Shown here: piece by piece, positions 761 through 55,427 of the stretch
How positions within the stretch are numbered: position 1 is the stretch's first letter
How the letters are laid out: each line of letters opens with the position of its first letter
DNA from: Euglena gracilis
Lineage: Eukaryota
Reading direction: 5' to 3'
Assembly (NCBI GenBank): GCA_039621445.1
Contig: CP154954.1
Span: forward strand, 27,020,123 to 27,084,122
DNA length: 64,000 bases
Made by a program: the position numbers and the translations under genes
Notes under the pieces: model-generated
Databases searched by the model: none
The model's input: only the letters and a program-made list of their open reading frames with translations
Told to the model about the DNA's origin: nothing

Positions 761-912
761 GAGGTCTCAAGGTGCTCCGCGTCTGTGCCGCGGCAAATAA
801 CTCGTCCGTGCGCCACGGTTTCTGCGCCGCGTGGAAAACTTCGCGGTGGCGCACTAAATGAAAGTCTGATGAACACGCAAAGGGCAAGGTACAAACACCA
901 AGTGAGGTAATA

Positions 913-12360: not shown

Positions 12361-12397
12361 CGTACCACTCTGCCACGCTGTCGTAAGGACATGGTAC

Positions 12398-24831: not shown

Positions 24832-25140
24832 TGTGTACCAGGCGTATGCTTCTGTCCCCTTCCGTTGAGGAAGTTAGGATGGAAGCAGATCCTATTAGGA
24901 TCTCCTAATGGGTGCCCCCTTCTCTCTCCACAGGTGGTATTCTTCTTATACCTTTTCCTTCCTTTCCTTGGACCGGACTTGGATTTCCAATCCGTCCTCC
25001 CTGCATTGCTCCGTGCTTTGCTTCTTGGGAAGTGGGAAAAGGGTTTTTACTGTTACTCTGATTTTTAGTTCCCAAGTAGGTGCGCCAAGGCGAAAGCGAA
25101 GGCTTTTTGGGAATTGGGAATTGGGAATCAGACGTACACT
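24832..25140 (+). repeat. 5' LTR of element C (309 bp, TG...CT)
   Basis: Direct repeat of 41066-41375. Confidence 0.97.
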
Positions 25141-25235
25141 TGGTAGCAGATTAGGTCACGATCCTACACACACAGCCCATACAGAAAGAAACGCTATCAA
25201 GTATTACACTTGGTAGCAGATTGGTTCGATCCTAC
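25141..25235 (+). promoter_or_regulatory. Duplicated primer-binding site of element C
   Basis: TGGTAGCAGATTAGGTCACGATCCTAC at 25141 and TGGTAGCAGATTGGTTCGATCCTAC at 25211, each preceded by TACACT. Confidence 0.75.
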
Positions 25236-25424
25236 GCTGACTGGCAGCGGAGAGCCCCTGCACCGTTATTACACGGTCGCAGCGTCAGCTCCCGGCTTCT
25301 AGTCAACGTCTAAGCAGACGAGCAGGCTCCGGAAGGTTCTGTACGGTATTACCCGTTACAGCCCCTCTGGTGCCAGCACAACTGCTTAGTTTTGTGGGTT
25401 TTTGCTGTTTTTGTCATCAGAAAG

Positions 25425-29402: not shown

Positions 29403-29437
29403 GGGAGCCCGAGGTCCGAGGGCACGGACCTCTGGGC
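29400..29437 (+). promoter_or_regulatory. Putative UAG readthrough signal (stop followed by stem-loop) at the gag-pol junction
   Basis: TAG GGGA GCCCGAGGTCCG AGGGCA CGGACCTC T GGGC. pol continues in the gag frame. Identical in B (41784-41821), with a compensatory base pair in A. Confidence 0.7.
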
Positions 29438-32400
29438 TGATGAACAGATGGAGGTAGGACCTGATCAACCCTGCCCCCCCTGCCCATCTGCCTTCCTGGT
29501 CGGTACCCGGAAAATTTTCGGGTCCCCCACCCCCCACTCCAACTTTCCGCTCGGAATGTTGTGCAAAGTAGGAAAGGGTTCATGGGAAAGCTGGCAAGAA
29601 AACGTATTTTCGCCAGACCCTTCACTTTGCCTACCCCCCATGGAACTTTTGGTCCAAGCGGAAATCAAAATCCAAAATTTTTGTGCAAAAGTCAAAATTC
29701 TCATTGACACTGGTTGTCGCATTGCACTACTTTTTCGGTTCGGGTTGATACCAACCCCCCTCTTGGTGCAAGCCAAGAAGCCGATCAAAATTACGACGGC
29801 TGACAACACCCCCATGTGCGGTGGTGACTTGGGATGCTTTTTGGACATAGTCCTACCCCTCATCCCCAAGCACCACTCACACCCCCCCAACCGCAAAAAT
29901 TTCCGGATACCTGGGGATATGAATCCGGAATCCATGGTTCTGACGTAATTCTGGGATACCCCTTTTTACGTCAGCACCGGCTGGTAGTGGATTGCCACTC
30001 CCACGGTTTGCGCACATCACCACTCTCTTCATTGCCCCCCAAACCTTCATCACCCGTGGCGTCAACCGCGACAGCCACCAATTTTTCCACACCGTTTTCA
30101 AAAACTTTTACCCCGTTACCAACCACACCAACCAACGTTTTCCACACCGGGTGTACCGAGAAAGTTCACCCCCTGCCCACTACCATACCAACTTCCGTTC
30201 CCCATGAGGCAGGGCAAGCGAGTAGCGGTACCCCCCTCGTTCCACTGGGTTACAAGACGAAAGCCCAAAGGCCTGAAGTACGTACGGTGTCGAGTAGTCG
30301 CCCAGCTGCACCAATACCCCGTTTTCCACCAGATGTATCGCTTTCAGATACATCTGTACACCCCCCAGCAGCTACAACAGCGCATCCCAACTTTTACACA
30401 CACCCCCACCAGACCAACATGCGCGACCAGGACCACTACTCCGACACTTCCTTCCAATGTGTGCACTGTAGGAGAATTTCCGCCCAGCCAGATTTCGATT
30501 GTGGATGTTTAGTCCAAACACCAACACTAATCCCGATTTCGCGTAACCATACACTTGGTTGCGGATCGCAATGCGCGACCGTACATCAAGTGCTCCAACA
30601 ACGAGGTATTGCCTTGTTGTTTGGGACCGCGAAATCCGTGTCACACACCTCCCCCACCTCCATCTGGCATGATATGGACTGGGTATGCACCCATCCAACC
30701 CATCAACCCTTGGGAATGCCCCTTGGGAGTGTGGATGACACACCCTTGACCTATGTTTGCGGATCCCTGAATTGCGTTACCGCTCTTCAACCCGCGAACC
30801 AGGTCGACACATACGCGATGCGCGTATGGAACGCATTTAATTTTGGTCAATACCGTATTTTGGAGGAATGGTTCTCCAAAATCGCGGCTTTGGCTGATTC
30901 CTTCGATTTGTCGTTGGAAATTGATGCGTTTTCATCAAAAGCGCATGCGCGCTTGTCGCGATATTGGTCGCGACATACCAACGCATTTCTTAAATTCTGG
31001 GGTGATACGGTGCTGTGGATGCATCCTCCCCCAAAGCTTATCCCGGATGTGGTGGAGAAAATCCTCCGCGATGAAGCGCGAGGAGCTCTCCTCATCCCGG
31101 TCAATCCGAATGCGGATTGGTTTCACCAACTATCCCATGTGTGTTTTCATTGGTGGGATTTACCCGCTGATGTACCACTATTTGAGGATTTTTGTGGTAT
31201 ATTATTACCACCTGTTAAAGAAATCATTTTTCGCATTTGTTTCTTCGACGCATTCGGAATATCCGATGTGCGTGTGCCAAGATACCTTGGTACCAATGGG
31301 GATGCCACACCCTCAACGCAGATTTCTGCGGTCATTGAGAGTGCGGACCAACATCCCAAGTCTGCTGATTATTGTTCGCGAATTGCTCGCGAATTTCATG
31401 GTGTACTGGATAACCCAGTTTACGCCTGCGACATCGACCCCGCGATTCGCGGTCCGTTCGGTGTTTGCAAAATCGAGCTCAAGGATGGCGCTAAACCTAT
31501 GCACCGGAAATTCTTCCGTTGTTCGGGTGAACGCGAACAGGCTCTCAACGAGATGATTGAGAAGCTCATCCAGCGGAAGTGGATTATCCCTTCCAAGAGC
31601 GAGTGGACATCACAAGCTTTTGTGGTGCCCAAACCCGCTGACCAGTCTGGTCAGAAGAAGTGGAGACTGGTGCTGGATTACCGGTACCTGAACTCCCAAA
31701 CGAAGGATGACCCCTTCCCGTTACCGCTGATCGAGGATTTGATCACCAAACAATCGGATAACCGGTTGTGGTCAATCTTTGATCTGGAAGACGGTTTCCA
31801 TCAGATGCATTTGCATCCTGATTCGCAACCGTACACGGCATTCGTGACATCCAAGGGTGTGTACCAATGGACGGTACTCCCCATGGGTGTTAAGAATGGC
31901 CCAGCCATGTTTCAACGCATGATCCAGTGGGTTTTGCGCGATTTACCGTTTGCTCTGGTGTACATCGATGATGTACTGGTGGGAACCCAACCGCCATCCG
32001 CGAAATCGGGCGAGGATATCCTCGACCCGCATTATCGCGATGTGCGCGCGGTATTATCCGCGTTCCAAAAGCATGTGCTTTTTGTGAAGGGTTCCAAAAT
32101 GCACCTGTTTCGCAAAATTATTAAGTTTTGCGGACACATCCTGAGCAACGGGCAGCGTAAAGCCGCACCCAGTAAGATGGAGGCCATTAAGAAATGGACT
32201 CCTGAGGTCATTAAGACCTTAACGCATTTAAAGGGATTTTTGGGATTAGCCCAATACTACGCGATTTACATGAAAGATTTCGCGAAAATCGCGGTACCCC
32301 TAACCCGACAACTCAAAAATCGGACACCCGATAACGCAAAAGTCATTTGGGATGACCAAATGCGCGAGGCCTTGAATAAAATCAAGGACTTGCTCCTCGA

Positions 32401-34528
32401 GAACGTGGTTCTCGATATCGCGGATCCATACAAACCGTATGTCCTGGAGGTCGACAGCAGCGATTACGCTGTTGGCGGGGTTCTTAGCCAGCATAATGCG
32501 GCGAATGAACTCCGACCTGTGGCTTTCTTTAGCAGGAAGCTACAGGGCGACAACGGGAAAGGACAGGTTAAATGGAGCATTCGCGAAAAGGAGACATATG
32601 CCATTGTGCTAATTCTCCAGAAGTTCCGCAGCTGGATAGCCAGCAGCTTGGTCCAGATACTAGTGTTGACGGATCATGAGAGCCTTCAACACTGGTATAC
32701 CGAGGACCTGAACAAGGCCATGTCATCAGTTGGCAGAAGATGCCGATGGCATGAGTTCTTGAGCCAGTTTAACCTGGTGGTAGTTTATACCCCAGGTCAT
32801 ACGCAAAAAGTTGCGGATCCTCTCAGCCGAGCCCCCTGGTATTATCCTGGGAACCCGGATGAGGGTGATGCGACTTTTCATGGCAGCCATGAGGCTGACC
32901 AGTTCGCACGTCGATCCGACGCTGCGGACAACATGCTCGATTCACTACCGGTTTCCCGGGTGTATCGCAGCATCGCCATTTCACCATTGCGTGGAAGGCG
33001 CCGGCGTGGACGCACTGCCGGACCCCGTCGCATTACGCGTACGGAAACTCCTACCCCCCTATTTTTCCGCGAATGGGATTATTCGCGTGACCCTATATAT
33101 AGTACCATTGTGAATAGACTTCGTAATGGTGAATCCATAGAGAATTACTCTCTATCACCATTGCGGCTTATTTTCCGGAATGATTCTGGTTATAAATATT
33201 GTATACCCCAAGACCTGGTTGATGATGTGATTTTGAGCTATCACAACCATGGTCACCCTGGGGCCCCCAAACTTCTTTCACTAGTGGGTCGCAGATATTG
33301 CACAACCCTGAGTGAAAAAGAATTATATTCGCGCTGTTTGCAAATTTCGCAACGGTGCCAAATTTGTCAGGCTGTGAAACCGCGCAGAGGTACCCCCCCT
33401 GGTACGATGGACTTTTTCCCCGTACCACCTGACATTTTTACGTCCCTCTGCATGGATTTTCTCGAACTTGAACCTTGCAAAGGATCAGATGACAAAATTT
33501 ACGATTACGTTTTTGTTGTCGTCTGTCGGCTGAGTGGGTACATAGTAGCCATTCCATGCCGGAAAGCAGGGTTGACAGCCCAAATTTTGGCATCCATATT
33601 CCTGGAGAAATGCATCTGCTTAATGGGTTTACCGAACGAAATCGTGAGTGATCAAGATCACTTGATCTCTTCGCGGTTTTTCACAACTTTGTGCGGTTTA
33701 CTCGGCATTGAGCAGCATTTTTCCATTATATACCGCCCGAAAGGCAATGGTAGAGCCGAGGCAGCCGTGAAATCCGTTGTCAATATGCTTCGCCTTTCAC
33801 TGGCTGACTCGGGTAAGAATTGGTTATCCGTTCTTCATTGGTGTTTATTTTACATCAATACCTTGCCAGGGTTGGTATTACCACACTCACCGTACAAAAT
33901 TGTTTTCGGACGAGACCCTCCGGCCATAGGGGATATCCCCTCGGAGAGACCCGCCCGAAGTAGCGTCAGCTGTGAAACGTGGTTTGCAGAAGTGGAATCA
34001 CTCCGCTCTGCAGTCCAATCACGTATCACAGAAATTCATTCCAACAAACGGAAATCGTTTTTACAAAACTTCAACACACCTGTGTATAGTCCAGGTGACC
34101 GCGTGTGGGTACGGAATAACCGCACCCGCATGCAATCTTCCAAGCTAGATCCTCTTTGGCTCGGCCCATGCGAAATTTTGGAGAGGTTAGGTAGTAGCGG
34201 GCGATATAAAGTTGCCTTGCCCAACGGGATTGAGGACGTCCATATGGACGACTTCAAACCGTACCTAAGCCCCCCAGACGGAAAAGCTATCCCCTGCCTA
34301 TATTTCAAGCCCCGTTCCAGATTACCTGAAACGGACGACTTTGTGGTCGATAAGATAATAGACCACAAGGTCGACAGGGGTGTGCACTACTGGAAAGTTC
34401 GCTGGAAAGGGTATGGGCCAGAGGAGGACACTTGGGAGCCAGCATCCAGTTTTGTTGGATATGTCCAACAGGATTGGAAGCTGTGGAACAAGCGCAATAA
34501 CATAGACATAAACATAAACACTTTCTGA
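29403..34528 (+). CDS. pol: Pol of element C: PR - Cys cluster - Dam-like MTase - RT - RNase H - integrase - chromodomain (one 1-nt frameshift in the C-run at 29882-29888)
   Basis: ILIDTGC and DVILGYPFL (PR), EIDAFSS...WMHPP (MTase-like), [13 protein letters not shown] and YIDD (RT), [12 protein letters not shown]...EKE...TDH (RNase H), HNHGH...CQIC, MDF, SDQD, GRAE (IN), FVVDKIIDH...[17 protein letters not shown] (chromodomain). Confidence 0.95.
30845..31260 (+). other. DNA adenine-methyltransferase-like domain within pol of element C
   Basis: [73 protein letters not shown] resembles the DIRS/phage Dam-type MT pattern D[AL]F[AS]...NAF..W....[WY].[NH]PP..LI....KI......L..P.....W. Confidence 0.8.
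34335..34490 (+). other. Chromodomain at the integrase C-terminus (element C)
   Basis: [40 protein letters not shown], with aromatic-cage positions F, W and Y retained. Confidence 0.9.
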
Positions 34529-34723
34529 AACGATTTCGTTTTGGAGAATGCGTGTGTTTTATGTGAATGTTTCGCGTTTATACCCCCCCCTGCACTTCAT
34601 TATTTCTCTATCTTTCTCGCAGAGTTTTGATTAAGATAGAAGCCTTGCTTTTTCAGTGCTCTCGCACTCAAATCGACTGACAACAAGGTTATCCTTAGTT
34701 GTCGTCGTCGTTCGGGTAGCATC

Positions 34724-37700
34724 ATGCTGCCTGGGCGCGGACCTGGACCAGGTCCACCATGGCCGCAGCCTTCTGGCGCGCCATACCCTCAGTACCCTCA
34801 GTATGCTGAGGCCCCGATTCCGGGTGCCCCACATGCTGAGAGGGTTTCAGCCCCGGTATTCGCCGCGGCTACCAGCAGCCGGTCCGCATATGCGGTACCA
34901 GATCCATCTGCCGTCCAGCAGCCGGCACCTCAGCCACCCGTGCAGCGCAGATCGCGCCTGCCCCCGTATGCGGGAGAGATGATCTTCCGCACTACGGAGA
35001 CGTTGGAGCGGGCGATGCGTATGTGCGCACACCCCCCAACGGAGCCCTTTATGCAAGCCCTTTGGGATGCATACTGTGCTCAGTTGTTGGTGGTAGCCAA
35101 CACCCCTGTGGCTCAGTGGTGTCCCTGCGGTCAAGCCCTGATGACGGGCAGACGGTATTTCTCGTCCGCAGCCGATTCCGGCTTCGAACCCGGCGAGACC
35201 ATGATGGACCTGGGCGTGTATGTGCCGCCCATGCTGCAAACGCAGACGCCGGTGGGATCCCACACCGTGCATATGCGTGAGCACACGCCCCCACCGGTAG
35301 GTGAGGCTGTGCATGTCCCACCTGGGATGACGAGAATTTTTGCTCGCCCGCCCTCGCCGCAGCGAATGCCGCCGCGCGAGCCGCCAGCGGAGCAATTTGT
35401 CTCGCGGTACGCGACGCACGCGGATTACCCGCGCGGCGCACGCGTGCTCCCAGCCGGACAGTCGGACGTGCCCTCTGAGGCATACGTCCAACACATGTTC
35501 ATGCACTGGATGCCACAAGCATCATCGGTCGCCCCTGCCCCTGGCGTTGAGCCACGGAGGCAGGAGGAGCCCATAGTGGTGGAGGATGAACCTCCCCACC
35601 GTGAGGCAGCCCGACCGCCCAGTGCAGCCCCTGTCCAGACTGGGGATGTCCCCCGTCGGCAGGAGGCTCCCTACTATCATATGGCACCTCCGGGAACCGA
35701 GCAGGATGAGCTTGCTCGGCACTTCCTGCAGGAGCCAGTATTCGCGTCTGAAGAGCACCGGACGAGGTATTACGCCTCTCTGGCTGCCCTTCAGGGTCGT
35801 GGATACACCCCCTACCATCCGTACCAGCCGCAGCTGCGGGTGGCGACCCCGGTATTACCCGGTGAGCCCCCGGCAGGAGCGGCAGGATTACCTGCCACCC
35901 TGAAGCGCGATAGGGTTACGGAGAACCTTACCCCACAGCCCAGGCGACCCAGCCCACGGGACGCGGAAGGCGGTGCGGCAATGCAGGTGGAAGCCAGCCA
36001 GGATACCCTGGCCGGGCAACCACCGGCAGTGGCACAGGCAGCGATGAGCCGTCCTGTTGCCGCAATGCCTCCGCCGATCCCTCCGGTATGGAAGGAGCCG
36101 CGACCTCCTACGCCGAAACCAAGCCCACGCCAGGCTCCTGGCCAGCGCCCAGCCACGCCGTCACCGCGACGTGCAGCGGAACGGCAAGGTCCCTCCCCAG
36201 AGATGGAATGGGAAGGTACCGAACCGACTCCTGCCGCACCGAGCGCCCGACCCTCTGGTATTCGCCAGACAGGGAAGGACAAAGGTAAGGCTGAGGGCAA
36301 AGGCAAGGGAGAAGGCAAAGGCGTGGCCGGCAAAGGTAAGGGTGAGGGCAAGGGTAAGGGTACAGCCCGTGAGGAGGAGGAAGAACCAGCAGAAGTCCTC
36401 TCGGACTTTGAGCAAATGCTCAGGTTCAAGGAGGAGCTGGAGGACGAAGGCTGGCGAATGCAGCATGATTACCATGTTGCAGGAAACCGCCCCGTCACCC
36501 CTCCGGAGGCAGTCATCGAGGTGGTATTACACCACACCGAAAACAGAGTCAGACAATTCCATTACGGAATTGACCTGTACGCCTTCGAAGGTGAAGGTGG
36601 CAGACCCTTGCTGGATGCCCAGCCGGGTTTCTGGGAACTCTGGTTTTGGCTGGGATACCCCTGCCAGAACTGGGGTCTCTTCAGCGACTCCACTGGCCGC
36701 AGTTACCTGCACCAGTTAGGATTTCGGGACCAGCATGTGTTGGCCCGAAGGCTGAAGGCAATCTTCGACTGTATTCACACAGTCGGGCCCCTCGGTGTGC
36801 AGTGGAAATACTACCCACTGAACCCCGACATCGAACGCCTGATCGAGGTGTTGTGGTGCAACAACCTCCAGGTGTGGCTGGTGAGCCATTACGGCTCCAC
36901 CTTCCGCGTTAAGCGCGTTTCCCTGGCTTACCCACAGAGGTATGACCTCTGTTGTAAGTATTGCCGGCAGGAGTTTCCTGTCGACTTCTGGGGATTCGGC
37001 GTACGCGGAAGTCCTCCACCGCCTCGGGATAACCCGGGCCTGGAGATGGGACGCCGCATGCTTATGCATGTGTGCCGCGACGCCCCGGATGTCCAGGGCA
37101 AAAGTCGCCGCGTCCATAAGCAGCGTATTTTTATGCTGCAACAGTTCTGGTGGCGAGCCTGGACCACCTACGTCATGGAGGTGTATATACATCTCCGTGA
37201 CACCCAGGACGATAGGCCTGGTATGGAAAGCTTGCCACCAGACTACGGCGACCCCGTTGAGGGACCTCGTCGTCGTCGGGTTATCGCCGACCTGCGCCCC
37301 AACTGGCACCTCGCCGGGATAGACCTGGAGGAACATTTCAGGCGACAGTTTGGCGGTACCCTCGACAGGGAGGTATTCCTCCAGCTGATGAATCACCCGA
37401 AGGCCATCCTCGACCTGGGTATGCCGATTCTGGCATGCGTGCAGGAGTTCGAGGACGGGTTTTTCGAGGTCTGGGAGGACACGCGTTACCGCGGCTTCCT
37501 GGGCCCGAACAGGCCTGCAAACGCTTGGGTGCAGCCATCATGGCCGCCACCCTGGCCCAACAGCGCCAGTAGCAGTACGCTGGCCTTTTACAGGCTGGCG
37601 GATGCCCAGGGATGCCGATGGCACCCCGACGATCCTCGTTCGCCCGAGGATCTGCGCGCCTTCATCGCCCCAGAGGATGAACCTCTGGCGCGAAGGAGAC

Positions 37701-40246
37701 GTGAGGCGTCAGTCGCTTCCACCACTGCGATTCCGCGGCGGGAGGAACGCGACCGCAGCCCCTCCGTCACCATACTGGAGGCAGCGCCGCCGTCTCCGAC
37801 AGGAACGGCTGTATCATTCGTCTCTGCCCCGCGAGCGGCAGGGGAACGATCAGTTTCCCCGGCCCCCGCGGCGGCAGCTCCCGTCTGTCCACCGGTAGGT
37901 GGAGACGAGGAACTCCCTCAGGAGGAAGGCGAGAACGTGGAGGATATCCTCTACGCTGCTCTGCATCCTCTGGCACAGCCTAGGCCAGACGAAGCACCCG
38001 CAGGGGATATACCTGTGGCTGCTACGCCTGTTCCAACGGCTGAGCCTCCAGCCGAGGTGACTGGTATGGTCGTCGAGGATATCCTCGAAGAACCTGCCAG
38101 TCCCACAGCACGCACCTCGTTAGGAGGCCGTGTGCTCGGCGCCGTGGTCACTGGCATTACTGCCGTGGCTGCTGCACTAACGCTACGAGGTGGAGGTGTA
38201 GCATCAAGCTCCGCCGCTGAGGTCGTGGAGACACCAGATGTCGGTGTCCCCACACCCCCATCTCCGGCAACAGCGCAACCACCTTCAGGGGATGAACCCC
38301 AGCCGACAGAGCCATCTGTCGCACCGGCTACAGCGGAGGATCAACCTCCTGTAGCACCTGCGCCAGCGGTTGTGGAGGATCAACCTCCTAGACCGGATGT
38401 CGAAATGGAAGTGGAGGAGATACCCCCACGATCACGGACACCGCGCAGGGACCCTGCCGCCCCGAGGACAATGGCAGAGTTTCTGGGAGCGCCAGCGCCT
38501 GTGGAAGCACCGATTCCGGTGACGACCACAGTGCCACGCCTCGTCGGACAGGATGAACCTGTTCGGCGACGGCCTGCTGAACAACCCCGGGAACGAATGC
38601 CAACCCCTCGGAGCGTCATGCGCGACCCAGCGGTCAGTATGCCCGCTTCGCCCAGACGGCAAACGTCTACTCCGGCACCATCGGCTCCTGATACCAGGAG
38701 TAAGCCGCAGGCGTCGTCTCCTGATTCCGGGAGTGCGAAGCCGAAAGGAGGCAAATCGGGTGCTGCACCCTGTAAGCCCCCTTCCAAAGGCGGTGATGGG
38801 AAACCACCACCGAAAGGTGGCGCTGGAGGTCAGACTGGCGGACAGCCGAAAGGCCCTACGACAATGCACGACTATTCGGCCGTTGCATCGTCCGGGTACG
38901 GCCAGAGCAAACCGAAAGGTAAGGCTCGTGGTCGACAGGCCCAGTCTTCCGCCGGATCGACGGATGAGGAGCAGGATGAACCTGCTTCACCTCCTGTGTC
39001 TGCGGATGCCCAGCTCTGGACCCAGGATATCCTGACCAGACTAGGCACCGTGGAAGAGAGGACGAAGAAACTGGCTGCTATTAGGCACCAGAAAGGGTCA
39101 CTGAATCGATGGATTCAGCCCCTCTTCGTCCGCGGAGAACCTTTCCACTATGTCCCGGAACATACCTGGACATTCTGGAACAGGCGCTCACCCAGAGTAC
39201 TGGCACAGTACTTTGGTGAGGACTGCGTGTTGGATTTCCAGCACGGCACGTCCCTTGCCTGGACGTGCACCGTGTGCCACCATGTGCGGCACAACCAACC
39301 GCTTGTGCATGTGTGCAAGCGGCAGGTGCAATCCTCGTGGTTCCATCACAGGGCATATGTGCCGAACTGTGTGGCGCTCGTATGTGGCGAGTGCCTGAAT
39401 GCCTGGAAGCACAGCTTGAACTACTCCTACAGTGAGAATGCTCACGACAGGGATATCCCTGCCTTGTGCATCAACTGTATAGGAGGCAAGTTCGTGCAGA
39501 CTGCTGATGGAGCAGTCACCACCATTGTCCCCCAGCACTGGGAGACACTGGAGAAGTGGAAGAAGGAGTACAAGCAGGTGGAAGGCCGCCTGAAGCACTC
39601 CGACTTCCGAAAGGTAGAAAGCTACCGCCACACGGGAATGGCCCGTGAGTTCCAGATCGACGCTGGGGCAATGCGCCTCGCCGTCGAGGAACACGCCAAG
39701 GTAAGAATGCCTTACCTCTGGACTGATGGCGACTGGGAGACACAGGTTTACCCCCTGTTCTCCAAGCGTCAGCATGGCGGATACGCCTTGCCACTGTGGC
39801 CTCCTGAAGAACACGATTTGGTGGACTTCAGAGGTTGGTTGGCGGCTGTATTACGGCCCCATACCGCAAGAGCTCGGACAGCGAGGTGGATGTATGACAT
39901 CAACTTCAAGCAGACCCCGGGGATGCCCCCGCAGGTGCCTGCGAATCACCCCCGGATGAATTACATCATCTGGCCGGTGATGCTGCCCAGAATTTTCTGG
40001 GAGCAACTCCAACGGTATCTTCAGCATCATGCTGAGCGTACCAGGGAGAAGCTGCCGGATAATTGGATCAAGGACTGGGAGACCCCTTCCTTTGATGTCA
40101 ACGATCCGGAGCTCAACACCATTCGGAGTGAATCAGCTCCGCCGCGTTCCCCACGCCAACTGGAGTTGGTTGAGGACCCATTAGGGGACCCCCAACACGA
40201 CTACTGGCGTGAGGTCCGCGAACGTCCAGCCAATAAAGGCAGGTGA
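34724..40246 (+). CDS. ORF3 of element C: 1840-aa protein of unknown function (Pro-rich linkers, KG repeat, CxxC/HxC domain, C-terminal RING-like Cys domain)
   Basis: Uninterrupted 5.5-kb ORF between pol and the 3' LTR. Three globular blocks are conserved in the homolog of element B (47048-52480), and the first block is also seen in A (~56100-56420) and E (61183-61722, minus). Confidence 0.9.
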   Translation: MLPGRGPGPGPPWPQPSGAPYPQYPQYAEAPIPGAPHAERVSAPVFAAATSSRSAYAVPDPSAVQQPAPQPPVQRRSRLPPYAGEMIFRTTETLERAMRMCAHPPTEPFMQALWDAYCAQLLVVANTPVAQWCPCGQALMTGRRYFSSAADSGFEPGETMMDLGVYVPPMLQTQTPVGSHTVHMREHTPPPVGEAVHVPPGMTRIFARPPSPQRMPPREPPAEQFVSRYATHADYPRGARVLPAGQSDVPSEAYVQHMFMHWMPQASSVAPAPGVEPRRQEEPIVVEDEPPHREAARPPSAAPVQTGDVPRRQEAPYYHMAPPGTEQDELARHFLQEPVFASEEHRTRYYASLAALQGRGYTPYHPYQPQLRVATPVLPGEPPAGAAGLPATLKRDRVTENLTPQPRRPSPRDAEGGAAMQVEASQDTLAGQPPAVAQAAMSRPVAAMPPPIPPVWKEPRPPTPKPSPRQAPGQRPATPSPRRAAERQGPSPEMEWEGTEPTPAAPSARPSGIRQTGKDKGKAEGKGKGEGKGVAGKGKGEGKGKGTAREEEEEPAEVLSDFEQMLRFKEELEDEGWRMQHDYHVAGNRPVTPPEAVIEVVLHHTENRVRQFHYGIDLYAFEGEGGRPLLDAQPGFWELWFWLGYPCQNWGLFSDSTGRSYLHQLGFRDQHVLARRLKAIFDCIHTVGPLGVQWKYYPLNPDIERLIEVLWCNNLQVWLVSHYGSTFRVKRVSLAYPQRYDLCCKYCRQEFPVDFWGFGVRGSPPPPRDNPGLEMGRRMLMHVCRDAPDVQGKSRRVHKQRIFMLQQFWWRAWTTYVMEVYIHLRDTQDDRPGMESLPPDYGDPVEGPRRRRVIADLRPNWHLAGIDLEEHFRRQFGGTLDREVFLQLMNHPKAILDLGMPILACVQEFEDGFFEVWEDTRYRGFLGPNRPANAWVQPSWPPPWPNSASSSTLAFYRLADAQGCRWHPDDPRSPEDLRAFIAPEDEPLARRRREASVASTTAIPRREERDRSPSVTILEAAPPSPTGTAVSFVSAPRAAGERSVSPAPAAAAPVCPPVGGDEELPQEEGENVEDILYAALHPLAQPRPDEAPAGDIPVAATPVPTAEPPAEVTGMVVEDILEEPASPTARTSLGGRVLGAVVTGITAVAAALTLRGGGVASSSAAEVVETPDVGVPTPPSPATAQPPSGDEPQPTEPSVAPATAEDQPPVAPAPAVVEDQPPRPDVEMEVEEIPPRSRTPRRDPAAPRTMAEFLGAPAPVEAPIPVTTTVPRLVGQDEPVRRRPAEQPRERMPTPRSVMRDPAVSMPASPRRQTSTPAPSAPDTRSKPQASSPDSGSAKPKGGKSGAAPCKPPSKGGDGKPPPKGGAGGQTGGQPKGPTTMHDYSAVASSGYGQSKPKGKARGRQAQSSAGSTDEEQDEPASPPVSADAQLWTQDILTRLGTVEERTKKLAAIRHQKGSLNRWIQPLFVRGEPFHYVPEHTWTFWNRRSPRVLAQYFGEDCVLDFQHGTSLAWTCTVCHHVRHNQPLVHVCKRQVQSSWFHHRAYVPNCVALVCGECLNAWKHSLNYSYSENAHDRDIPALCINCIGGKFVQTADGAVTTIVPQHWETLEKWKKEYKQVEGRLKHSDFRKVESYRHTGMAREFQIDAGAMRLAVEEHAKVRMPYLWTDGDWETQVYPLFSKRQHGGYALPLWPPEEHDLVDFRGWLAAVLRPHTARARTARWMYDINFKQTPGMPPQVPANHPRMNYIIWPVMLPRIFWEQLQRYLQHHAERTREKLPDNWIKDWETPSFDVNDPELNTIRSESAPPRSPRQLELVEDPLGDPQHDYWREVRERPANKGR

Positions 40247-40286
40247 GGTGTCTGTCAGCGCCAATGCGGCGTCTTTCAGCACCCTC

Positions 40287-40362
40287 GTCAGGTATTCGCC
40301 TGACACCCTGTTTGGGTATTCGCCCGAACAGCCCCTTCGAAGACCTTTGCGGTATTCGCCGC
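40287..40362 (+). repeat. Three tandem hairpins with identical TATTCG loop and different stems
   Basis: GTCAGG-TATTCG-CCTGAC, CTGTTTGGG-TATTCG-CCCGAACAG, GCGG-TATTCG-CCGC. Confidence 0.8.
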
Positions 40363-40515
40363 TAGTAAGTTCCCACCGGGATGCTGCCATGTGCAGGATT
40401 CCGTGCGCATGCATGCACACCCCTCTCCCCTCTCCCCTCTCGCGGGCGTGCGACACGCAGCGCACAGGGCCGACGGCCTCTTTTCCTTTCCCTTTCTTTT
40501 CTTTTCGGCCGTTTG

Positions 40516-40870
40516 AGGCCTTAAGGCTGCCAGACAGCACAACTTTTCTGGCCTAAGCCAACCCCCCACTCCTCTCTACTTTCCCCCCGGGGCAAATGCT
40601 GTCGCCGGCAGTTGGTTTTGTAGAGTAGGATTTCCTTTTGCGTGGTCAGGTTTGACTGGCCATGCGCCCTGCCCAGGTTTGACTGGTCAGAGGCCCCCTC
40701 CTTCCACACCCTCCCCATGGGTTTTCCTGGAATGACCATGGACCCAACCCCAAGTGCCTTTGGCACACCCAAACTGGGTGGATGGGTTTGCTTGGCAAGG
40801 AAACCTGCCAGCCCCATTTTCCCCAATGGGCTATAATATACTATACCCCATAAGCCACCGCAAAATAGGT
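40516..40870 (+). other. Conserved, probably structured non-coding block in the 3' region of element C
   Basis: Clearly alignable to 52850-53210 of element B although the flanking non-coding DNA is not. Shared hairpins GTGCC-TTT-GGCAC and ACCCA-AAS-TGGGT. Confidence 0.65.
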
Positions 40871-41055
40871 GAAACCATTTTGCGCGTTTTGGGCTTTTGG
40901 GTCCCCTCCTTTCCGCCCCCCCCTTTGAGTGGACCCCTGTGCGACGGAAAGGGCCCCTGTGGATGCGCCAGGGTGCACCTCCCACAGACCAGGTCTGTGT
41001 CCGAAATCCCTGTGGCCAGAATGCCTGGTCCAAAGGGGAAATCGGGCATAGCCCT

Positions 41056-41065
41056 GGGAGGGGGA
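41056..41065 (+). promoter_or_regulatory. Polypurine tract of element C
   Basis: GGGAGGGGGA immediately before the 3' LTR; identical in B. Confidence 0.9.
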
Positions 41066-41375
41066 TGTGTACCAGGCGTATGCTTCTGTCCCCTTCCGTT
41101 GAGGAAGTTAGGATGGAAGCAGATCCTATTAGGATCTCCTAATGGGTGCCCCCCTTCTCTCTCCACAGGTGGTATTCTTCTTATACCTTTTCCTTCCTTT
41201 CCTTGGACCGGACTTGGATTTCCAGTCCGTCCTCCCTGCATTGCTCCGTGCTTTGCTTCTTGGGAAGTGGGAAAAGGGTTTTTACTGTTACTCTGATTTT
41301 TAGTTCCCAAGTAGGTGCGCCAAGGCGAAAGCGAAGGCTTTTTGGGAATTGGGAATTGGGAATCAGACGTACACT
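41066..41375 (+). repeat. 3' LTR of element C (310 bp)
   Basis: Direct repeat of 24832-25140, followed by TSD AAACC. Confidence 0.97.
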
Positions 41376-41380
41376 AAACC

Positions 41381-41786
41381 CCGGTACACCGGTCATGGTC
41401 GACGGGAAACCCGTTCACCACGACGGTTTGACGGTCGAACGGAATACCGTTCCCCTCGTTATGCGGAATCCCGCCACAAATCCCGTTGTTCACTTTGCGG
41501 TTCCAAAGATCACCACGCACCCAAATGTCCCAGATCTCGTTCCCCCCGGCCCGGCTACGGAAATCGCGGTAAGCGCCGCGATGACCGTGGTTACTCCTCC
41601 AACCGGCAAAAGGTCGGTTTCAAGATTTCTTGTTTGGAGGATGACACCCCGGCTTCGGGCAGGGAGGGGGATGAGACCTCGGACGGGGAATTTAATGAGG
41701 CCCGAATGGCGGTGCGCTCATTGAATTCCATCTATTCCACCAAAAAGTCCGTTGCCGGCTATGCGGCCGGTTCGGACTTGGAGTAG
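41381..41786 (+). CDS. gag: Gag of element B, 3' part (second CCHC knuckle)
   Basis: KPRYTGHGRR...CSLCGSKDHHAPKC...AGSDLE*. Joins seamlessly to 24831 after removing C and one TSD copy. Confidence 0.92.
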
Positions 41787-44700
41787 GGGAGCCCGAGGTC
41801 CGAGGGCACGGACCTCTGGGCTGATGAACAGATGGAGGTAAGACCTGATCAACCTTACCCCCCCTGCCCATCCGCCTTCACGGTCAGTACCCGGAATTAT
41901 TTCGGGTCCCCTACCCCCCACTCCACATTTCCGCTCGGAATGCTGAGCAAAGTAGGAAAGGGTTCATGGGAGAGCTGGCATGCAAACGTATTTCCGCCAG
42001 ACCCTTCACTTTGCGTACCACCAATGGAATTACTCGTCCAAGCGGAAATCCGCATTCAAAATTTCTCCACCAAAGTCAAAATTCTCATTGACACTGGTTG
42101 TCGCATTGCACTGCTCTTTCGGTTGGGGTTGATACCGACCCCGCTCTTGGTAAGCGCCAAGAAACCGATCAAAAATACAACCGCGGATAACACCCCCATG
42201 TGTGGTGGTGATTTGGGATGTGTGCTCGAGATACTCTTGCCCATCATTCCGAAGCATCACTCACAACCCCCACAATTACAACATTTCACCAATATTTGGG
42301 GTTACGAGTCCGGAATTCACGGGTCTGACGTAATTTTGGGATACCCATTTTTACGCCAGTACCGATTGGTTGTGGATTGCCACTCCCACGGTTTGCGCAC
42401 AGCACTCACCACTTCATTGACACCCAAACCACCATCACCGTTGTCATCCACTATGATGACCACCGCTTTGCCCACACCGTTACCCACAATGGCAACACCG
42501 TTACCCACCACACCAACAACCGTTTTCCACACCCGGGGTACGGAGAAAGCCTCCCCCCTGCCCAATGACACACCAACATGCGTTCCACATGAGGCAGGGC
42601 AAGCGAGTAGCGGTACCCCCGCCGTTCCACTGGGTTACAAGACGAAAGCCCAAAGGCCTGCAGTGATCACGGTGTCGAGTAGTCGCCCAGCCACACCACC
42701 ACTCCGTTTCCCACCAGTTGTGCCGAATCCAGGCACACCTGTACAAGACTCACCGGCTAATGCCATCGACACCCACTTACACGCACACCTGTCACACCAT
42801 CACACTTCCTTCCAATGTGTGCACTGCAGGAGAATTTCCACCCAATCGGATTTCGATTGTGGATGTTTAGTTGAAAATCCGACACTAATCGCAATTCCGA
42901 AAACGGAATCCACCCCCCATGATACACTTGGTTGTAGCCCGCAATGCGCGGAGATACACCGAGTACTCCAACAACGCGGATTAGCCTCGTTGTTCGGAAA
43001 CGCGAAAAGCGCGATTCCTAATTACAATCGCGATCACACTTGTTACGGATTTGATGCGGAATGGGGAAACCCCCAACCTGACCAAACTCCCTTGGGATTA
43101 ACCCTTGTGGTAGTGGAAGACAGCCCGCATGTTTGTGGATCCATTCATTGTGTTTCTACCCTTCAACCCGAAGATCGGGTGCATGAATACGCGAAACGCG
43201 TATGGAATGCTTTCAATTTTGGTCAATATCGCATTTTGGAACGATGGTTTTCCAAAATCGCGACATTGGCTGATTCTTTTGATTTGGCATTGGAAATCGA
43301 TGCCTTCTCATCCAATGCTCATGCCCGTTTGCCACGTCATTGGTCACAACACTCCAACGCATTTGATAAATTTTGGGGTGATACGGTGTTATGGATGCAC
43401 CCTCCCCCACAACTTATCGAACGTGCGGTTGAGAAAATTCTGCGGGATGAAGCCCGTGGAGTTATTCTCATACCCATCATTCCGGAAGCGGAATGGTTCA
43501 CCCAACTATCGTACGTATGTTTTCATTGGTGGGATTTACCCACTAATGTACCGATTTTTGAGGATTTTTGTGGTAAAATATTACCACCCTTGCAAGAAAT
43601 CATTTTTCGCGTATGTTTCTTCGATGCATTCGGAATGTCCGAATTCGCGGTGCCGAGGAAGCTCGGTAGCCCCAGGGATACCCTGGCGGTTTCCGCAGTC
43701 ATCGAGAGTGCAGGTCAGCATCCTAATTCAGCCGAATTCTGTTCGCGGATTACCCGCGAATTCCACGGTGTGCTGGAAAATCCAGTATACGCGTGCGACA
43801 TCGACCCCGCGATACGCGGTCCGTTCGGTGTTTGTAAGATCGAGCTTAAGGATGGAGCCAAGCCAATGCACCGGAAATTTTTTCGTTGTTCGGGAGAACG
43901 CGAACAAGCTCTCAATGAAATGATTGAGAAGCTTATTCAGCGCAAGTGGATAGTACCCTCGAAAAGCGAGTGGACATCCCAGGCATTTGTTGTTCCTAAA
44001 CCCCCAGACCCCTCAGGTCAGAAGAAATGGAGGCTGGTGCTGGATTACCGGTACCTGAACTCCCAAACAAGGGATGATCCCTTCCCGCTCCCCCTGATCG
44101 AGGATTTGATCACCAAACAATCGGAAAACCGGTTGTGGTCAATTTTCGATCTGGAGGACGGTTTTCACCAAATGCACTTACACCCTGACTCCCAACCATA
44201 CACGGCATTCGTGACATCCAAGGGAGTGTACCAATGGACGGTACTCCCCATGGGTGTTAAGAATGGTCCAGCCATGTTTCAGCGCATGATACAATGGGTT
44301 CTACGCGATTTACCGTTTGCCATTGTGTACATTGATGATGTACTGGTGGGAACACCACCACCAACCGCAAAATCGAGCGAGGATATCCTCGTCACACACT
44401 TCCACCATGTTTGCGCGGTATTAACCGCTTTTCAAAAACATGTGCTTTTCGCGAAAGGCGCGAAAATGCATTTGTTTCGGATACTTATAAAATTTTGTGG
44501 TCACATCCTCAGCAATGGACAGCAAAAAGCCGCTCAGAGTAAACTCGAAGCCATTAAGAAATGGACCCCTGAGGTAATCAAAACGATTACTCACCTCAAA
44601 GGATTTTTGGGATTAGCCCAATACTACGCGATTTATATGAAGGACTTCGCGAAAAGCGCGGTGCCCCTCACCAAACAGCTCAAAAACCGGGCTGTTGACA

Positions 44701-46886
44701 ACACCAAAGTCATTTGGGATGACCAAATGCGCCAGGCCCTTGAGAAAATCAAGGCTTTGCTTTTGGAGAATGTTGTGCTCGAAATCGCGGACCCGTATAA
44801 ACCCTATGTCCTGGAAGTCGACAGCAGCGATTACGCTGTTGGCGGAGTTCTTAGCCAGCATAATGCGGCGAATGAGCTCCGACCTGTGGCTTTCTTCAGC
44901 AGAAAGTTACAGGGCGACGATGGAAAAGGTCAAGTCAAGTGGAGTATACGCGAGAAGGAAACCTACGCAATCGTGCTTATACTCCAGAAATTTCGAAGCT
45001 GGGTAGCCAGCAGCCTTGTCCAGATCCTCGTCAAGACCGACCATGAGAGTCTCCAACACTGGTACACCGAGGATTTGAACAAGGCCATGTCATCGGTCGG
45101 AAGGCGATGCAGATGGCATGAGTTCTTGAGTCATTTTAACCTTGTGGTTATCTATACCCCTGGTCACACACAAAAAGTAGCGGATCCGCTCAGTCGGGCC
45201 CCTTGGTATTACCCTGGGAACCCGGATGAGGGAGACGCGACTTTTCATGGAAGTCAGGAAGCTGACGAGTACGCACGTCGAAACGACGCTGCGGACAATC
45301 TTTTGGATTCTTTTCCCGTTTCACAACTATTCCTGGTCGCACCAGTGCGCGGAAGGCGCCGACGTGGAAGCACGTCCGGGCCCCGGCGTATTACGCGCAC
45401 GGAGTCCCCTTCCCCACTGTTCTTTCGCGAATGGGATTATAGTCGTGACCCGGTGTATGACACCATTGTCACCAGACTTCGTAATGGCGAAGTGCTGGAC
45501 AATTACACTCTTTCACCTTTACGGTTGGTTTTTCGCAATGAATCGGGTTACAAATATTGTATCCCCCAGGACCTGGTTGATGATGTGATTTTGTGTTATC
45601 ACAACCATGGTCACCCTGGGGCCCCCAAACTTCTTTCGTTGGTGGGCCGCAGGTATTGCACAACCCTGAGCGAGAAAGAGCTTTACTCACGCTGTTTGCG
45701 AATAGCGCAACGGTGTCAAATTTGTCAAGCGGTAAAACCCCGCAGAGGTACCCCCCCTGGTACGATGGACTTTTTCCCCGTACCCCCTGACATTTTTACA
45801 TCCCTCTGCATGGATTTTCTGGAATTAGAACCGTGCAAAGGAACAGACGACAAAATTTACGATTACGTTTTTGTTGTCGTCTGCAGGCTGAGTGGGTACA
45901 TTGTAGCCATTCCATGCCAGAAGTCAGGGTTGACTGCCCAAAGTTTGGCAACTATATTTTTGGAGAAATGCATTTGCCTGATGGGTTTACCGAATGAAAT
46001 CGTGAGTGATCAAGACCATTTGATTTCTTCAAGGTTTTTCACCACTTTGTGCGGTTTACTCGGAATCGAGCAACATTTTTCCATTATATACCGACCCAAA
46101 GGCAATGGTAGGGCCGAGGCAGCCGTGAAATCCGTCGTGAATATGCTTCGCCTTTCACTGGCTGACTCGCGCAGCAACTGGATATCAGTTCTACCATGGT
46201 CTTTGTTTTATATCAATACCCTACCAGGGTTGGTTTTACCTCACTCTCCTTATAAATTAGTTTTCGGACGGGACCCTCCGGCCATAGGGGATGTCCCTTC
46301 GGAGAGACCCGCCCGAACGAGTGTCAGTTGCGAGACCTGGTTTGCGGAAGTAGAAAATCTACGTTCTGCGGTTCAGAAGCGCGTGACTGATATTCATGCA
46401 ATCAAACGGAAATCGTTTTTGCAGAATTTCAAGTCACCTGTGTATAGTCCCGGTGACCGCGTGTGGGTACGGAATAGCCGTACTCGCATGCAGTCTTCCA
46501 AGCTGGACCCCCTCTGGCTCGGCCCCTGTGAAATCCTAGAAAGACTAGGTACCAGCGGGCGTTACAAGGTTGCATTACCGAATGGTGTTGAGGACGTTCA
46601 TATGGACGACTTCAAACCATACCTGTCGCCACCGGATGGGAAACCCATCCCGTGTTTGCACTTCAAACCCCGTTCCAGATTACCTGAGACGGACGACTTT
46701 GTAGTCGATAAAATTATCGATCACAAAATCGACAAAGGTATGCACCTTTGGAAGGTCCGCTGGAAAGGGTATGGGCCCGAGGAGGACACTTGGGAGCCGG
46801 CAACCAGTTTTGTTGGGTATGTCCAACAGGATTGGAAGCTGTGGAATAAGAAACATAACATTGATGTTTCCATGACAAGTTTTTGA
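41787..46886 (+). CDS. pol: Pol of element B, intact: PR - Cys cluster - Dam-like MTase (~43220-43635) - RT - RNase H - integrase - chromodomain
   Basis: Single open frame (1684 aa from ATG 41832), in frame with gag after the TAG at 41784-41786. All catalytic motifs as in C. Confidence 0.96.
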   Translation, partial: GSPRSEGTDLWADEQMEVRPDQPYPPCPSAFTVSTRNYFGSPTPHSTFPLGMLSKVGKGSWESWHANVFPPDPSLCVPPMELLVQAEIRIQNFSTKVKILIDTGCRIALLFRLGLIPTPLLVSAKKPIKNTTADNTPMCGGDLGCVLEILLPIIPKHHSQPPQLQHFTNIWGYESGIHGSDVILGYPFLRQYRLVVDCHSHGLRTALTTSLTPKPPSPLSSTMMTTALPTPLPTMATPLPTTPTTVFHTRGTEKASPLPNDTPTCVPHEAGQASSGTPAVPLGYKTKAQRPAVITVSSSRPATPPLRFPPVVPNPGTPVQDSPANAIDTHLHAHLSHHHTSFQCVHCRRISTQSDFDCGCLVENPTLIAIPKTESTPHDTLGCSPQCAEIHRVLQQRGLASLFGNAKSAIPNYNRDHTCYGFDAEWGNPQPDQTPLGLTLVVVEDSPHVCGSIHCVSTLQPEDRVHEYAKRVWNAFNFGQYRILERWFSKIATLADSFDLALEIDAFSSNAHARLPRHWSQHSNAFDKFWGDTVLWMHPPPQLIERAVEKILRDEARGVILIPIIPEAEWFTQLSYVCFHWWDLPTNVPIFEDFCGKILPPLQEIIFRVCFFDAFGMSEFAVPRKLGSPRDTLAVSAVIESAGQHPNSAEFCSRITREFHGVLENPVYACDIDPAIRGPFGVCKIELKDGAKPMHRKFFRCSGEREQALNEMIEKLIQRKWIVPSKSEWTSQAFVVPKPPDPSGQKKWRLVLDYRYLNSQTRDDPFPLPLIEDLITKQSENRLWSIFDLEDGFHQMHLHPDSQPYTAFVTSKGVYQWTVLPMGVKNGPAMFQRMIQWVLRDLPFAIVYIDDVLVGTPPPTAKSSEDILVTHFHHVCAVLTAFQKHVLFAKGAKMHLFRILIKFCGHILSNGQQKAAQSKLEAIKKWTPEVIKTITHLKGFLGLAQYYAIYMKDFAKSAVPLTKQLKNRAVDNTKVIWDDQMRQALEKIKALLLENVVLEIADPYKPYVLEVDSSDYAVGGVLSQHNAANELRPVAFFSRKLQGDDGKGQVKWSIREKETYAIVLILQKFRSWVASSLVQILVKTDHESLQHWYTEDLNKAMSSVGRRCRWHEFLSHFNLVVIYTPGHTQKVADPLSRAPWYYPGNPDEGDATFHGSQEADEYARRNDAADNLLDSFPVSQLFLVAPVRGRRRRGSTSGPRRITRTESPSPLFFREWDYSRDPVYDTIVTRLRNGEVLDNYTLSPLRLVFRNESGYKYCIPQDLVDDVILCYHNHGHPGAPKLLSLVGRRYCTTLSEKELYSRCLRIAQRCQICQAVKPRRGTPPGTMDFFPVPPDIFTSLCMDFLELEPCKGTDDKIYDYVFVVVCRLSGYIVAIPCQKSGLTAQSLATIFLEKCICLMGLPNEIVSDQDHLISSRFFTTLCGLLGIEQHFSIIYRPKGNGRAEAAVKSVVNMLRLSLADSRSNWISVLPWSLFYINTLPGLVLPHSPYKLVFGRDPPAIGDVPSERPARTSVSCETWFAEVENLRSAVQKRVTDIHAIKRKSFLQNFKSPVYSPGDRVWVRNSRTRMQSSKLDPLWLGPCEILERLGTSGRYKVALPNGVEDVHMDDFKPYLSPPDGKPIPCLHFKPRSRLPETDDFVVDKIIDHKIDKGMHLWKVRWKGYGPEEDTWEPATSFVGYVQQDWKLWNKKHNIDVSMTSF

Positions 46887-47047
46887 GAACGCATGGGAAA
46901 CCCATGTTGTTTTCTCTTCTTTTATCATTGATTCTTATCATTCTTTCTTTCCGCAGACTTTTTAGCAAATAATACTCAAGCGGTTACCCTCACACACCTT
47001 ACAACCAACAACCCAAACATCCCACCGTACCGACCCCGGGCTGTATT

Positions 47048-55322: not shown

Positions 55323-55427
55323 AAATTGGCCTATAGGCCTTTTCCTCGCCTCTCTGTTTTCTTCCAAACCCCAAATCATTTCTCTCTTCTTTTCCTACAC
55401 CTCATAAAGTTACTTTTTCTTGCCAGA

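Follow-up and report, generated by a model that had tools for sequence, protein, structure and literature searches.

Open reading frames (ORFs) additional to gag and pol, sense-oriented and situated between pol and the 3' long terminal repeat (LTR) and present in most copies of an element, are a known class in plant LTR retrotransposons, as set out in the available part of a published account (PMC7264820). In Euglena, retrotransposons termed DAM-LTR and EpiLTR have been described, as far as the available part of a preprint goes (bioRxiv 10.64898/2026.05.21.726589). The E. gracilis genome measures 2.4 Gb, and LTR elements account for 21.8% (Table 4) or 32.81% (text) of it in the available part of its description (PMC11252322). 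Here we analyze a stretch of 64,000 nucleotides of Euglena gracilis DNA (assembly GCA_039621445.1, contig CP154954.1, positions 27,020,123 to 27,084,122 of the forward strand). This whole stretch is referred to as the window, and all positions are given in its own coordinates. It contains four related LTR retrotransposons, labelled A to D. The subject of this analysis is ORF3 (34724-40246, plus strand), which starts with ATG, encodes 1840 amino acids (aa) and, within element B, is placed between pol and the 3' LTR. ORF3 is very probably a real gene of the element and not an envelope (Env) gene. We also consider it likely, with somewhat less assurance, that it has been inherited with the element and kept by selection as a third gene.

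On the basis of its sequence, ORF3 is a member of the additional-ORF class and would represent a protein family that has not been recognised before. It resembles the additional ORFs of plants and of bdelloid rotifers, whose LTR elements reportedly carry captured extra ORFs: it is in sense orientation, it occupies the interval from pol to the 3' LTR, it occurs in most copies and its function is likewise unassigned. It differs from the plant ORFs in its euglenid host, in having no membrane segment of the 'ENV-like' kind and in belonging to a family without relatives in Pfam or among PDB sequences. At 1840 aa it is also far above what we take to be the typical size of such ORFs.

A second comparison is with the accessory genes of complex retroviruses, which are expressed from spliced subgenomic mRNAs. 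ORF3 shares with these a position downstream of pol, a candidate splice acceptor, faster evolution than pol and a possible supply in trans. There is no sequence or fold relation, however; ORF3 encodes a single giant protein composed of several modules in place of a set of small proteins, and its splicing is predicted. The closest described elements in the same host are the DAM-LTR and EpiLTR retrotransposons. From the available part of their description, the elements of the window are similar in being Ty3-like, with a chromodomain and a Dam-like stretch in pol (weak and below the family cut-off), and dissimilar in that no DNMT domain was detected in them. The terms 'ORF3', 'third ORF', 'additional ORF' and 'accessory' do not occur in the text of the preprint, supplements lying outside this scope. 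Likewise, no description of this gene was found in the titles and abstract openings of papers returned by literature searches on Euglena LTR retrotransposons.

The third gene and its copies

The frame of ORF3 is open from stop to stop across 34640-40246, whereas none of the frames that overlap it stays open beyond 273 aa. GC content is 0.58-0.61 across 34001-40000 versus 0.49-0.54 across 26001-34000. A preliminary description of this DNA, made from the sequence alone, had reported an intact, GC-richer ORF of about 5.5 kb, and these values bear it out. GC content at third codon positions (GC3) is 0.70-0.74 in the three conserved blocks of ORF3 versus 0.52 in gag and pol, a contrast that could stem from a separate origin or from translational selection of another kind. 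The protein has no similarity to gag or pol by blastp (best E against gag, 0.5), and comparison with itself revealed no internal repeats.

The three blocks are joined by linkers rich in Pro, Ala, Glu, Gly and Ser, which make up more than half of the protein. All features are on the plus strand. Block 1 (34955-35293; aa 78-190) contains the motifs RLPPYAG (aa 78-84), WCPCGQALMTG (aa 132-142) and DLGVYVPP (aa 162-169). Block 2 (36401-37693; aa 560-990) is Trp-rich with a CxxC ... HxC arrangement, and its motifs are PGFWELWFWLGYPC (aa 634-647), CKYC (aa 744-747), VDFWGFG (aa 753-759) and HVC (aa 782-784). It is immediately preceded by a Lys/Gly-rich basic tract, (KG)n (36275-36364; aa 518-547), which has a like, equally placed tract in element C. 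The motif RTSLGGRVLG and a weakly hydrophobic stretch follow in linker 2 (38111-38188; aa 1130-1155). A second basic tract, rich in Lys, Gly and Pro and kept in element C (38702-38932; aa 1327-1403), stands just before block 3 (39041-40123; aa 1440-1800). The latter holds a Cys/His cluster, CxxCH..HxC..Cx4CxxC..CxxC, within 71 residues (aa 1515-1585; nt 39266-39478), together with PGMPPQ..ANHP..N..IWP, YRHTGMAR (aa 1633-1640) and ANHPRMNY (aa 1740-1747). The motifs of the three blocks and the (KG)n tract that had been quoted beforehand are all present in the translation. A PPxY-like sequence, PPDY at about aa 838, was considered and dropped, as it is not conserved in element C.

In all four element copies of the window, pol is followed by at least block 1, and all three blocks are kept in two. 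By tblastn, block 1 is found in ORF3 itself and in three other copies: at 47249-47749 (49% identity), at 55914-56425 (34-36%, frame-broken) and at 61686-61492 on the minus strand (36%). The total of four agrees with the number first reported. The homologue in element C (46973-52480, plus strand; tblastn) has the three blocks, both basic tracts and RTSLGGRVLG in the same order as in B, at 36-49% amino-acid identity; pol of C is 80% identical to that of B. This homologue is divided into five frame pieces on the plus strand (46973-48811, 48553-49314, 49085-51079, 50868-52391 and 52178-52480). The oldest element, A, retains an N-terminal remnant that includes block 1 (55428-56425, plus strand), and element D retains a block 1 remnant (61492-61686, minus strand) directly after pol aa 994-1232.

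Identity to block 1 of B is 49-52% in C and 34-37% in A and D, and identity to the integrase region of B is 80% and 52-58%, respectively. As divergence of block 1 tracks that of the integrase region, the gene has diverged with the elements and was not acquired by one copy.

Selection was assessed between B and C by the Nei-Gojobori method. The ratio of nonsynonymous to synonymous substitution rates (dN/dS) is 0.27-0.29 in ORF3 blocks 1, 2a and 3, 0.28 in gag and 0.13 in pol, the ORF3 ratios being imprecise because dS is saturated. No ratio was obtained for block 2b, where the proportion of synonymous differences (pS) is too high. The proportion of nonsynonymous differences (pN) is far below pS in every ORF3 block. 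Amino-acid identity between B and C is 0.39-0.52 in the ORF3 blocks and 0.61 in gag. The higher dS of ORF3 reflects either a deeper history of the 3' module, through exchange between lineages, or a composition that inflates the estimate. The preliminary description had proposed a B-C comparison of dN/dS as a check; its outcome is favorable in blocks 1, 2a and 3 and is limited by the saturation. The claim of a selected accessory gene is further upheld by the same position in all four copies and by divergence parallel to that of pol.

Protein family and predicted modules

An exhaustive HMMER search with aa 560-1759 against 1,835,955,588 representative proteins returned 20 proteins at E <= 0.001, all of them 74-506 aa long. 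Five are E. gracilis transcript products (EukProt), eight come from Logan, four from ENA and three from JGI/IMG; the longest (506 aa) covers the ORF3 linker only. Metagenome relatives at 26-33% identity keep the Cys/His pairs of block 3 and its PGMPPQ..ANHP..N..IWP motif (alignment A1), and the YPQ..C..C...DFWGF motif of block 2 is kept in environmental relatives. The ligand pairs CxxC, HxC, Cx4CxxC and CxxC are kept in B, C and relative P0010 and partly in P0008 and P0012. Relative P0017 reads CxxC ... CxxC where block 2 of B reads CxxC ... HxC. The gene had also been called ancient. This is only loosely borne out, by these distant fragments.

Two host-like E. gracilis transcript products contain, in frame, a stretch of ORF3 linker. 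In P0004 (transcript 9304), 62 of 66 residues are identical to aa 1171-1236. P0014 (transcript 11683) matches the linker at 76% over 59 aa and has a weak match to a response-regulator receiver. Both pieces are possibly an exonised element fragment.

Other searches added no family. Within the lengths searched in a collection of 5.8 billion proteins, the block 1 profile (A6) found no relative, and profiles A1 and A5 returned nothing beyond P0010 and P0002 in the first case and P0017 and P0006 in the second. Searches of Pfam at E <= 10 with the three blocks and five relatives gave no match for six of the eight sequences and chance-level matches (E 0.02-0.19) for two; the two such matches on P0017 overlie its CxxC..CxxC stretch. 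At this threshold, block 3, P0008, P0010 and P0016 had no match to any Pfam family, RING and PHD included. Single-sequence searches of PDB sequences gave one chance-level match for block 2 (E 0.097) and none for block 3, and profiles A1 and A5 had no match there. Scans of metagenome contigs gave 308 and 318 pattern matches, none of which was confirmed by tblastn, and scans of IMG/VR viral contigs with blocks 3 and 2 gave 5 and 24, again with none confirmed. Judged by these searches, the ORF3 family appears to be new, having no recognised relatives in Pfam or among PDB sequences.

Structure prediction was limited by the shallow alignments available. The AlphaFold2 models had a mean predicted local distance difference test (pLDDT) score of 50.6 for block 3 (10 rows) and 45.1 for block 2 (8 rows). 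Foldseek returned no matches at E <= 0.001 in PDB (blocks 2 and 3) or BFVD (block 3), but models with a pLDDT of 45-51 are too poor to inform and the result has no weight either way. The check by AlphaFold and Foldseek that had been suggested in advance was carried through for blocks 2 and 3, giving neither a fusogen nor any other match, and is uninformative. In the ESM Atlas, block 2 had no usable match. Block 3 matched RING-type clusters at 0.80-0.84 (best 0.84), scores that shuffled proteins also attain in a third of cases. The ten best family-bearing matches for this block all belong to the RING family or clan, at scores of the shuffled level.

The conserved Cys/His clusters suggest that blocks 2 and 3 are zinc-binding modules, a prediction we hold to be somewhat more likely than not. 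Block 3 is similar to RING, PHD and treble-clef domains in having at least eight conserved Cys/His residues in CxxC-type pairs. It is unlike RING and PHD domains in lacking a Pfam match and in the spacing of its middle ligand pairs: at 17-22 residues, this departs from the consensus that we assume to be canonical for RING and PHD ligands. Any one specific activity that these motifs bring to mind, whether that of an E3 ligase, an anti-silencing factor or a nucleic-acid chaperone, would on its own be an unlikely assignment. The anti-silencing or chromatin-acting role put forward in the preliminary description drew neither support nor contradiction from these searches and models.

The carrier element and its expression

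Element B (24832-41375; 16.5 kb) is a complete Ty3/gypsy chromovirus-type LTR retrotransposon on the plus strand. Its direct LTRs (24832-25140 and 41066-41375) are 99.4% identical over 310 columns by self-blastn. They are flanked by the target-site duplication AAACC, which is present at 24827-24831 on the 5' side and repeated at 41376-41380 after the 3' LTR. A contig of sequencing run X16 represents the empty site, joining 24826 to 41376 with five letters that fit either side. Internal to the LTRs, sequence reading identified a primer-binding-site-like sequence directly 3' of the 5' LTR (TGGTAGCAGATT; 25141-25152), which begins TGGTAGCAG, and a polypurine tract immediately before the 3' LTR (GGGAGGGGGA; 41056-41065). 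The former presumably resembles the 3' end of a tRNA, the priming tRNA being likewise our assumption. A tRNA scan of the 64-kb window found no tRNA gene, and an Rfam scan of the window returned nothing. The LTR end and primer-binding-like sequence occur twice within 25136-25237, about 70 nt apart (ACACTTGGTAGCAGATT). The second copy (about 25210-25236) is longer and runs into a GGTTCGATCC stretch, which looks like the complement of a tRNA T-arm.

The gag gene (25425-29402) ends in TAG and encodes a zf-CCHC domain near its C-terminus (Pfam E 8e-7). The pol gene (29448-34528) encodes, by Pfam and sequence, a protease (DTG at 29706-29714), a weak Dam-like stretch, reverse transcriptase (RT; RVT_1, 1e-26), RNase H (RT_RNaseH_2, 2e-24), integrase (Integrase_H2C2; rve, 1.5e-7) and a chromodomain (Chromo, 1.2e-9). 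The order of RT, RNase H, integrase core and C-terminal chromodomain is that of Ty3/gypsy chromoviruses, and pol of element C has Pfam matches likewise.

The Dam-like stretch lies between protease and RT, at 30884-31129 in B and in the matching part of 41832-46886 in C. Its scores against PF05869 are 21.4 bits (B) and 20.2 bits (C), both under the Pfam cut-off of 28.1 bits. It reads WMHPPP in both elements, with HPPP where we would expect the catalytic (D/N)PP(Y/F) motif of the Dam family. This weak stretch probably ties the elements to the Euglena DAM-LTRs of the 2026 preprint.

As assembled, pol of B shifts frame by one base in a run of cytosines at about 29883-29889, so that the protease frame (29448-29948) and the RT frame (29828-34528) are one base apart. 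Contigs from three of four runs have one extra C behind 29881. The shift, in an otherwise young element, stems from an error of assembly or else is genuine. Contig depth in run X17 is lower over parts of the element, and one contig of this run joins 32949 to 37171, skipping 4221 bases from the interior of pol to ORF3 block 2, which indicates an internally deleted relative of the element.

Three of the four elements are nested. Element B is inserted in gag of element C, which continues in frame once B is removed (arithmetic on coordinates). Element C (20482-53814) has LTRs (20482-20909 and 53388-53814) that are 99.1% identical over 428 positions by self-comparison, and is in turn inserted in pol of the older element A; the three-deep nest spans 12400-57131. 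With LTR pairs that are identical to 99% or more in B as well as in C, the nesting fits chromodomain-guided insertion into existing element copies. Element D is rearranged: its pol is split between the plus strand (aa 1-993; 57414-59786) and the minus strand (aa 994-1232; 62389-61688), a layout that implies an inversion plus an internal deletion. Elsewhere in the window, two direct repeats of about 3.2 kb (3355-6511 and 6534-9717) are 89% identical and have more distant copies at both window ends. The regions 1-12400 and 62400-63800 show an excess of T over A, and no ORF of at least 300 aa starts there.

The two junctions between the coding regions differ in organization. The pol gene starts 46 nt after the gag TAG in the same frame. 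A 13-bp hairpin (29406-29438, plus strand; -26.4 kcal/mol, z = -3.5) begins 4 nt after this stop codon, and the 45-nt spacer is identical in B (29400-29450) and C (41784-41834), elements that are otherwise 81% alike. The hairpin looks like a stop-codon readthrough signal, and a gag-TAG-pol readthrough arrangement is known from gammaretroviruses. In our model, full-length RNA would serve for the translation of both gag and pol, and reading through the gag TAG would give access to pol.

ORF3 is separated from pol by at least two in-frame stops. A polypyrimidine tract ending in CAG (34598-34622, plus strand) lies about 100 nt upstream of its ATG and is a candidate splice or trans-splice acceptor. 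The spacer between pol and ORF3 has diverged between B and C, except for this tract (CGCAG followed by A.TTTT) and the context of the ATG; the counterpart in C (46932-46956) reads TTTC..CGCAGA.TTTT. In element A, a T-rich tract terminates in CAG (55411-55426) one base before the ORF3 ATG. When 17 pyrimidines out of 20, 10 or more T and an AG no further than 5 nt away are required (the stringent rule), the plus strand of B has 2 sites in 16.5 kb, and C has 1 in 12.4 kb to the right of the B insertion and 1 in 4.4 kb to the left of it, the last being at the start of C gag. One such site precedes ORF3 in B and one precedes ORF3 in C. Once the rule is loosened, the gag ATG of B, too, is found to follow a T-rich tract with a terminal CAG. 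Euglenid mRNAs frequently acquire a spliced leader. A spliced-leader fragment is present in 54% of E. gracilis transcripts, according to the available part of a published survey (PMC8219788).

From the conserved acceptor tract, the conserved ATG, the stops after pol and the spliced leaders of Euglena, we infer that ORF3 may be expressed from a spliced or trans-spliced subgenomic mRNA, a proposal that we regard as evenly balanced. Translation of ORF3 would then proceed from an mRNA processed at the acceptor, and in Euglena this processing would most likely be spliced-leader trans-splicing.

Public transcript data cover the gene. The 230-aa product of EG_transcript_25142 is identical to ORF3 aa 1381-1610 at 229 of 230 positions; ORF3 sequence is therefore in the E. 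gracilis transcriptome. Half or more of the sampled ORF3 words are present in 16 public runs. Across element B, all 30 depth bins are covered in each of four runs, one of which is recorded as RNA and three of which are guessed to be RNA. In the RNA-seq metatranscriptome X18, a 2402-nt contig covers 34054-36467 and so reaches out of pol into ORF3; the 'leaf litter' label of this run is not treated as a statement of habitat. Transcript ends and strand are not resolvable from such contigs. A loose end at 34664 in run X16 was considered as a possible leader, but it is the reverse complement of adjacent window sequence and was taken as an assembly hairpin.

Interpretation and significance

In the proposed model, the ORF3 product would be a soluble and largely disordered protein in which three folded modules are carried on Pro/Ala/Glu-rich linkers. 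Modules 2 and 3 probably bind zinc and are each preceded by a Lys/Gly-rich basic tract. The protein would serve as an intracellular accessory factor, its zinc modules and basic tracts binding nucleic acid, chromatin or host proteins, and could be supplied in trans.

Several observations weigh against reading ORF3 as a selected third gene with an mRNA of its own. Its homologue in C is in five frame pieces, yet gag and pol of that element are open and its LTRs are nearly identical. A broken ORF3 in an element with such young LTRs means that ORF3 was dispensable in cis, or altogether, for at least one round of transposition. Element C probably moved with a defective ORF3, or else ORF3 is more error-prone. 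By our own arithmetic, which assumes an even spread, the odds are about 0.02 that all four indels would fall in the 5.5-kb ORF3 of 14.2 kb of coding sequence. The one frame junction of the C homologue that was examined lies outside a homopolymer. The converse is seen in B, where ORF3 is intact and pol is frame-shifted; as assembled, this shift may make B non-autonomous. In addition, dS in ORF3 is saturated at 1.5 to above 2, compared with 0.82 in pol. The transcript evidence cannot separate an ORF3 mRNA from full-length element RNA, and no spliced or leader-bearing join was seen in the contigs of the four runs. As no match to a domain, solved structure or fold was found for ORF3, its proposed function derives from motifs.

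Four other explanations were weighed against that of a selected third gene. An envelope-like or fusogenic protein for leaving the cell would suit the env position of ORF3 (in sense, with pol on one side and the 3' LTR on the other), probably behind a splice acceptor, and one hydrophobic stretch exists (aa 1137-1155, score 1.81). We nevertheless give this explanation almost no credence. A Kyte-Doolittle scan found no N-terminal hydrophobic signal, the first 60 residues being rich in Pro, Gly and Ala without a hydrophobic core. Nor did it find a C-terminal anchor: the stretch at aa 1137-1155 is the sole segment above 1.6, and the last 680 residues have none above 0.95. This stretch lies mid-protein in a disordered linker, and its counterpart in C, RTSLGGRVLGGLRSLIAVVTPRG, holds two Arg, so that it is not conserved as a membrane segment. 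The predominance of linker and the absence of relatives of blocks 2 and 3 from IMG/VR viral contigs point the same way. This hydropathy scan supports the preliminary description in seeing no signal peptide or transmembrane segment and in concluding that the ORF is not Env. Equally remote is the idea that ORF3 is non-functional, a long frame that happens to be open, or is held open by its GC-rich base composition, while the element decays. The missing domain, the poor structure models and the frame-broken homologue in C would be consistent with it. However, base composition predicts about 3% stops per codon, from which we estimate the odds of 1868 open codons to be of the order of 1e-26. Other frames are far shorter, pN lies far below pS in every block and conserved motifs are common to relatives at 26-33% identity.

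A role as a particle-associated structural or nucleic-acid chaperone protein, in effect a second Gag-like component, is unlikely. It would account for the basic Lys/Gly tracts and Cys/His clusters, as found in nucleocapsid proteins, for the long disordered linkers and for a rate of change near that of gag in both identity and dN/dS. Against it, no similarity links ORF3 to gag, a gag of 1336 aa that includes a CCHC knuckle is already present in the element, and element C apparently moved with a broken ORF3. We attach slightly less probability still to capture of a host gene, whether recently transduced or anciently captured and then kept. The raised GC3 of the blocks favors it, as does the finding that dS in the B-C comparison is greater for ORF3 than for pol, in keeping with module exchange or a history of its own; the linker shared with the host-like transcripts P0004 and P0014 is a further point. 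Recent transduction, which had been named beforehand as a case that would overturn the accessory-gene reading, is excluded by the same place in four of four divergent copies, the divergence parallel to pol and the conserved start codon and upstream signal. Capture in general is opposed by the lack of a free-standing full-length homologue among the 1.84 billion representatives, and the piece shared with P0004, low-complexity linker at 94% identity, looks rather as if a fragment of the element had become exonised. Capture in the distant past may have occurred and is compatible with ORF3 being an element gene. In a more far-reaching version of the third-gene reading, to which we give a similarly low probability, ORF3 might be the first of a new class of retroelement accessory proteins, a giant disordered scaffold with RING-like zinc modules, expressed by trans-splicing, which recruits or disables host factors against silencing as an E3 ligase or adaptor. 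Such a scaffold, together with the chromodomain and Dam-like domain of pol, would form a toolkit for the survival of the element in the heavily methylated Euglena genome.

Description of what Euglena elements encode besides gag and pol is at an early stage. Taken as a selected third gene of its element, ORF3 is a conserved gene whose sequence is in the transcriptome, in elements young enough to be active. It opens a concrete way into the question of how retroelements deal with a host in which 5-methylcytosine and 6-methyladenine are both in use. It also provides a candidate for a subgenomic retroelement mRNA made by trans-splicing, of which we know of no description. Should its zinc modules prove to be neither an E3 ligase nor a chromatin reader, ORF3 would be one further additional ORF. 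If they are one of these, ORF3 would be a counterpart, in a protist, of the accessory genes found in complex retroviruses.

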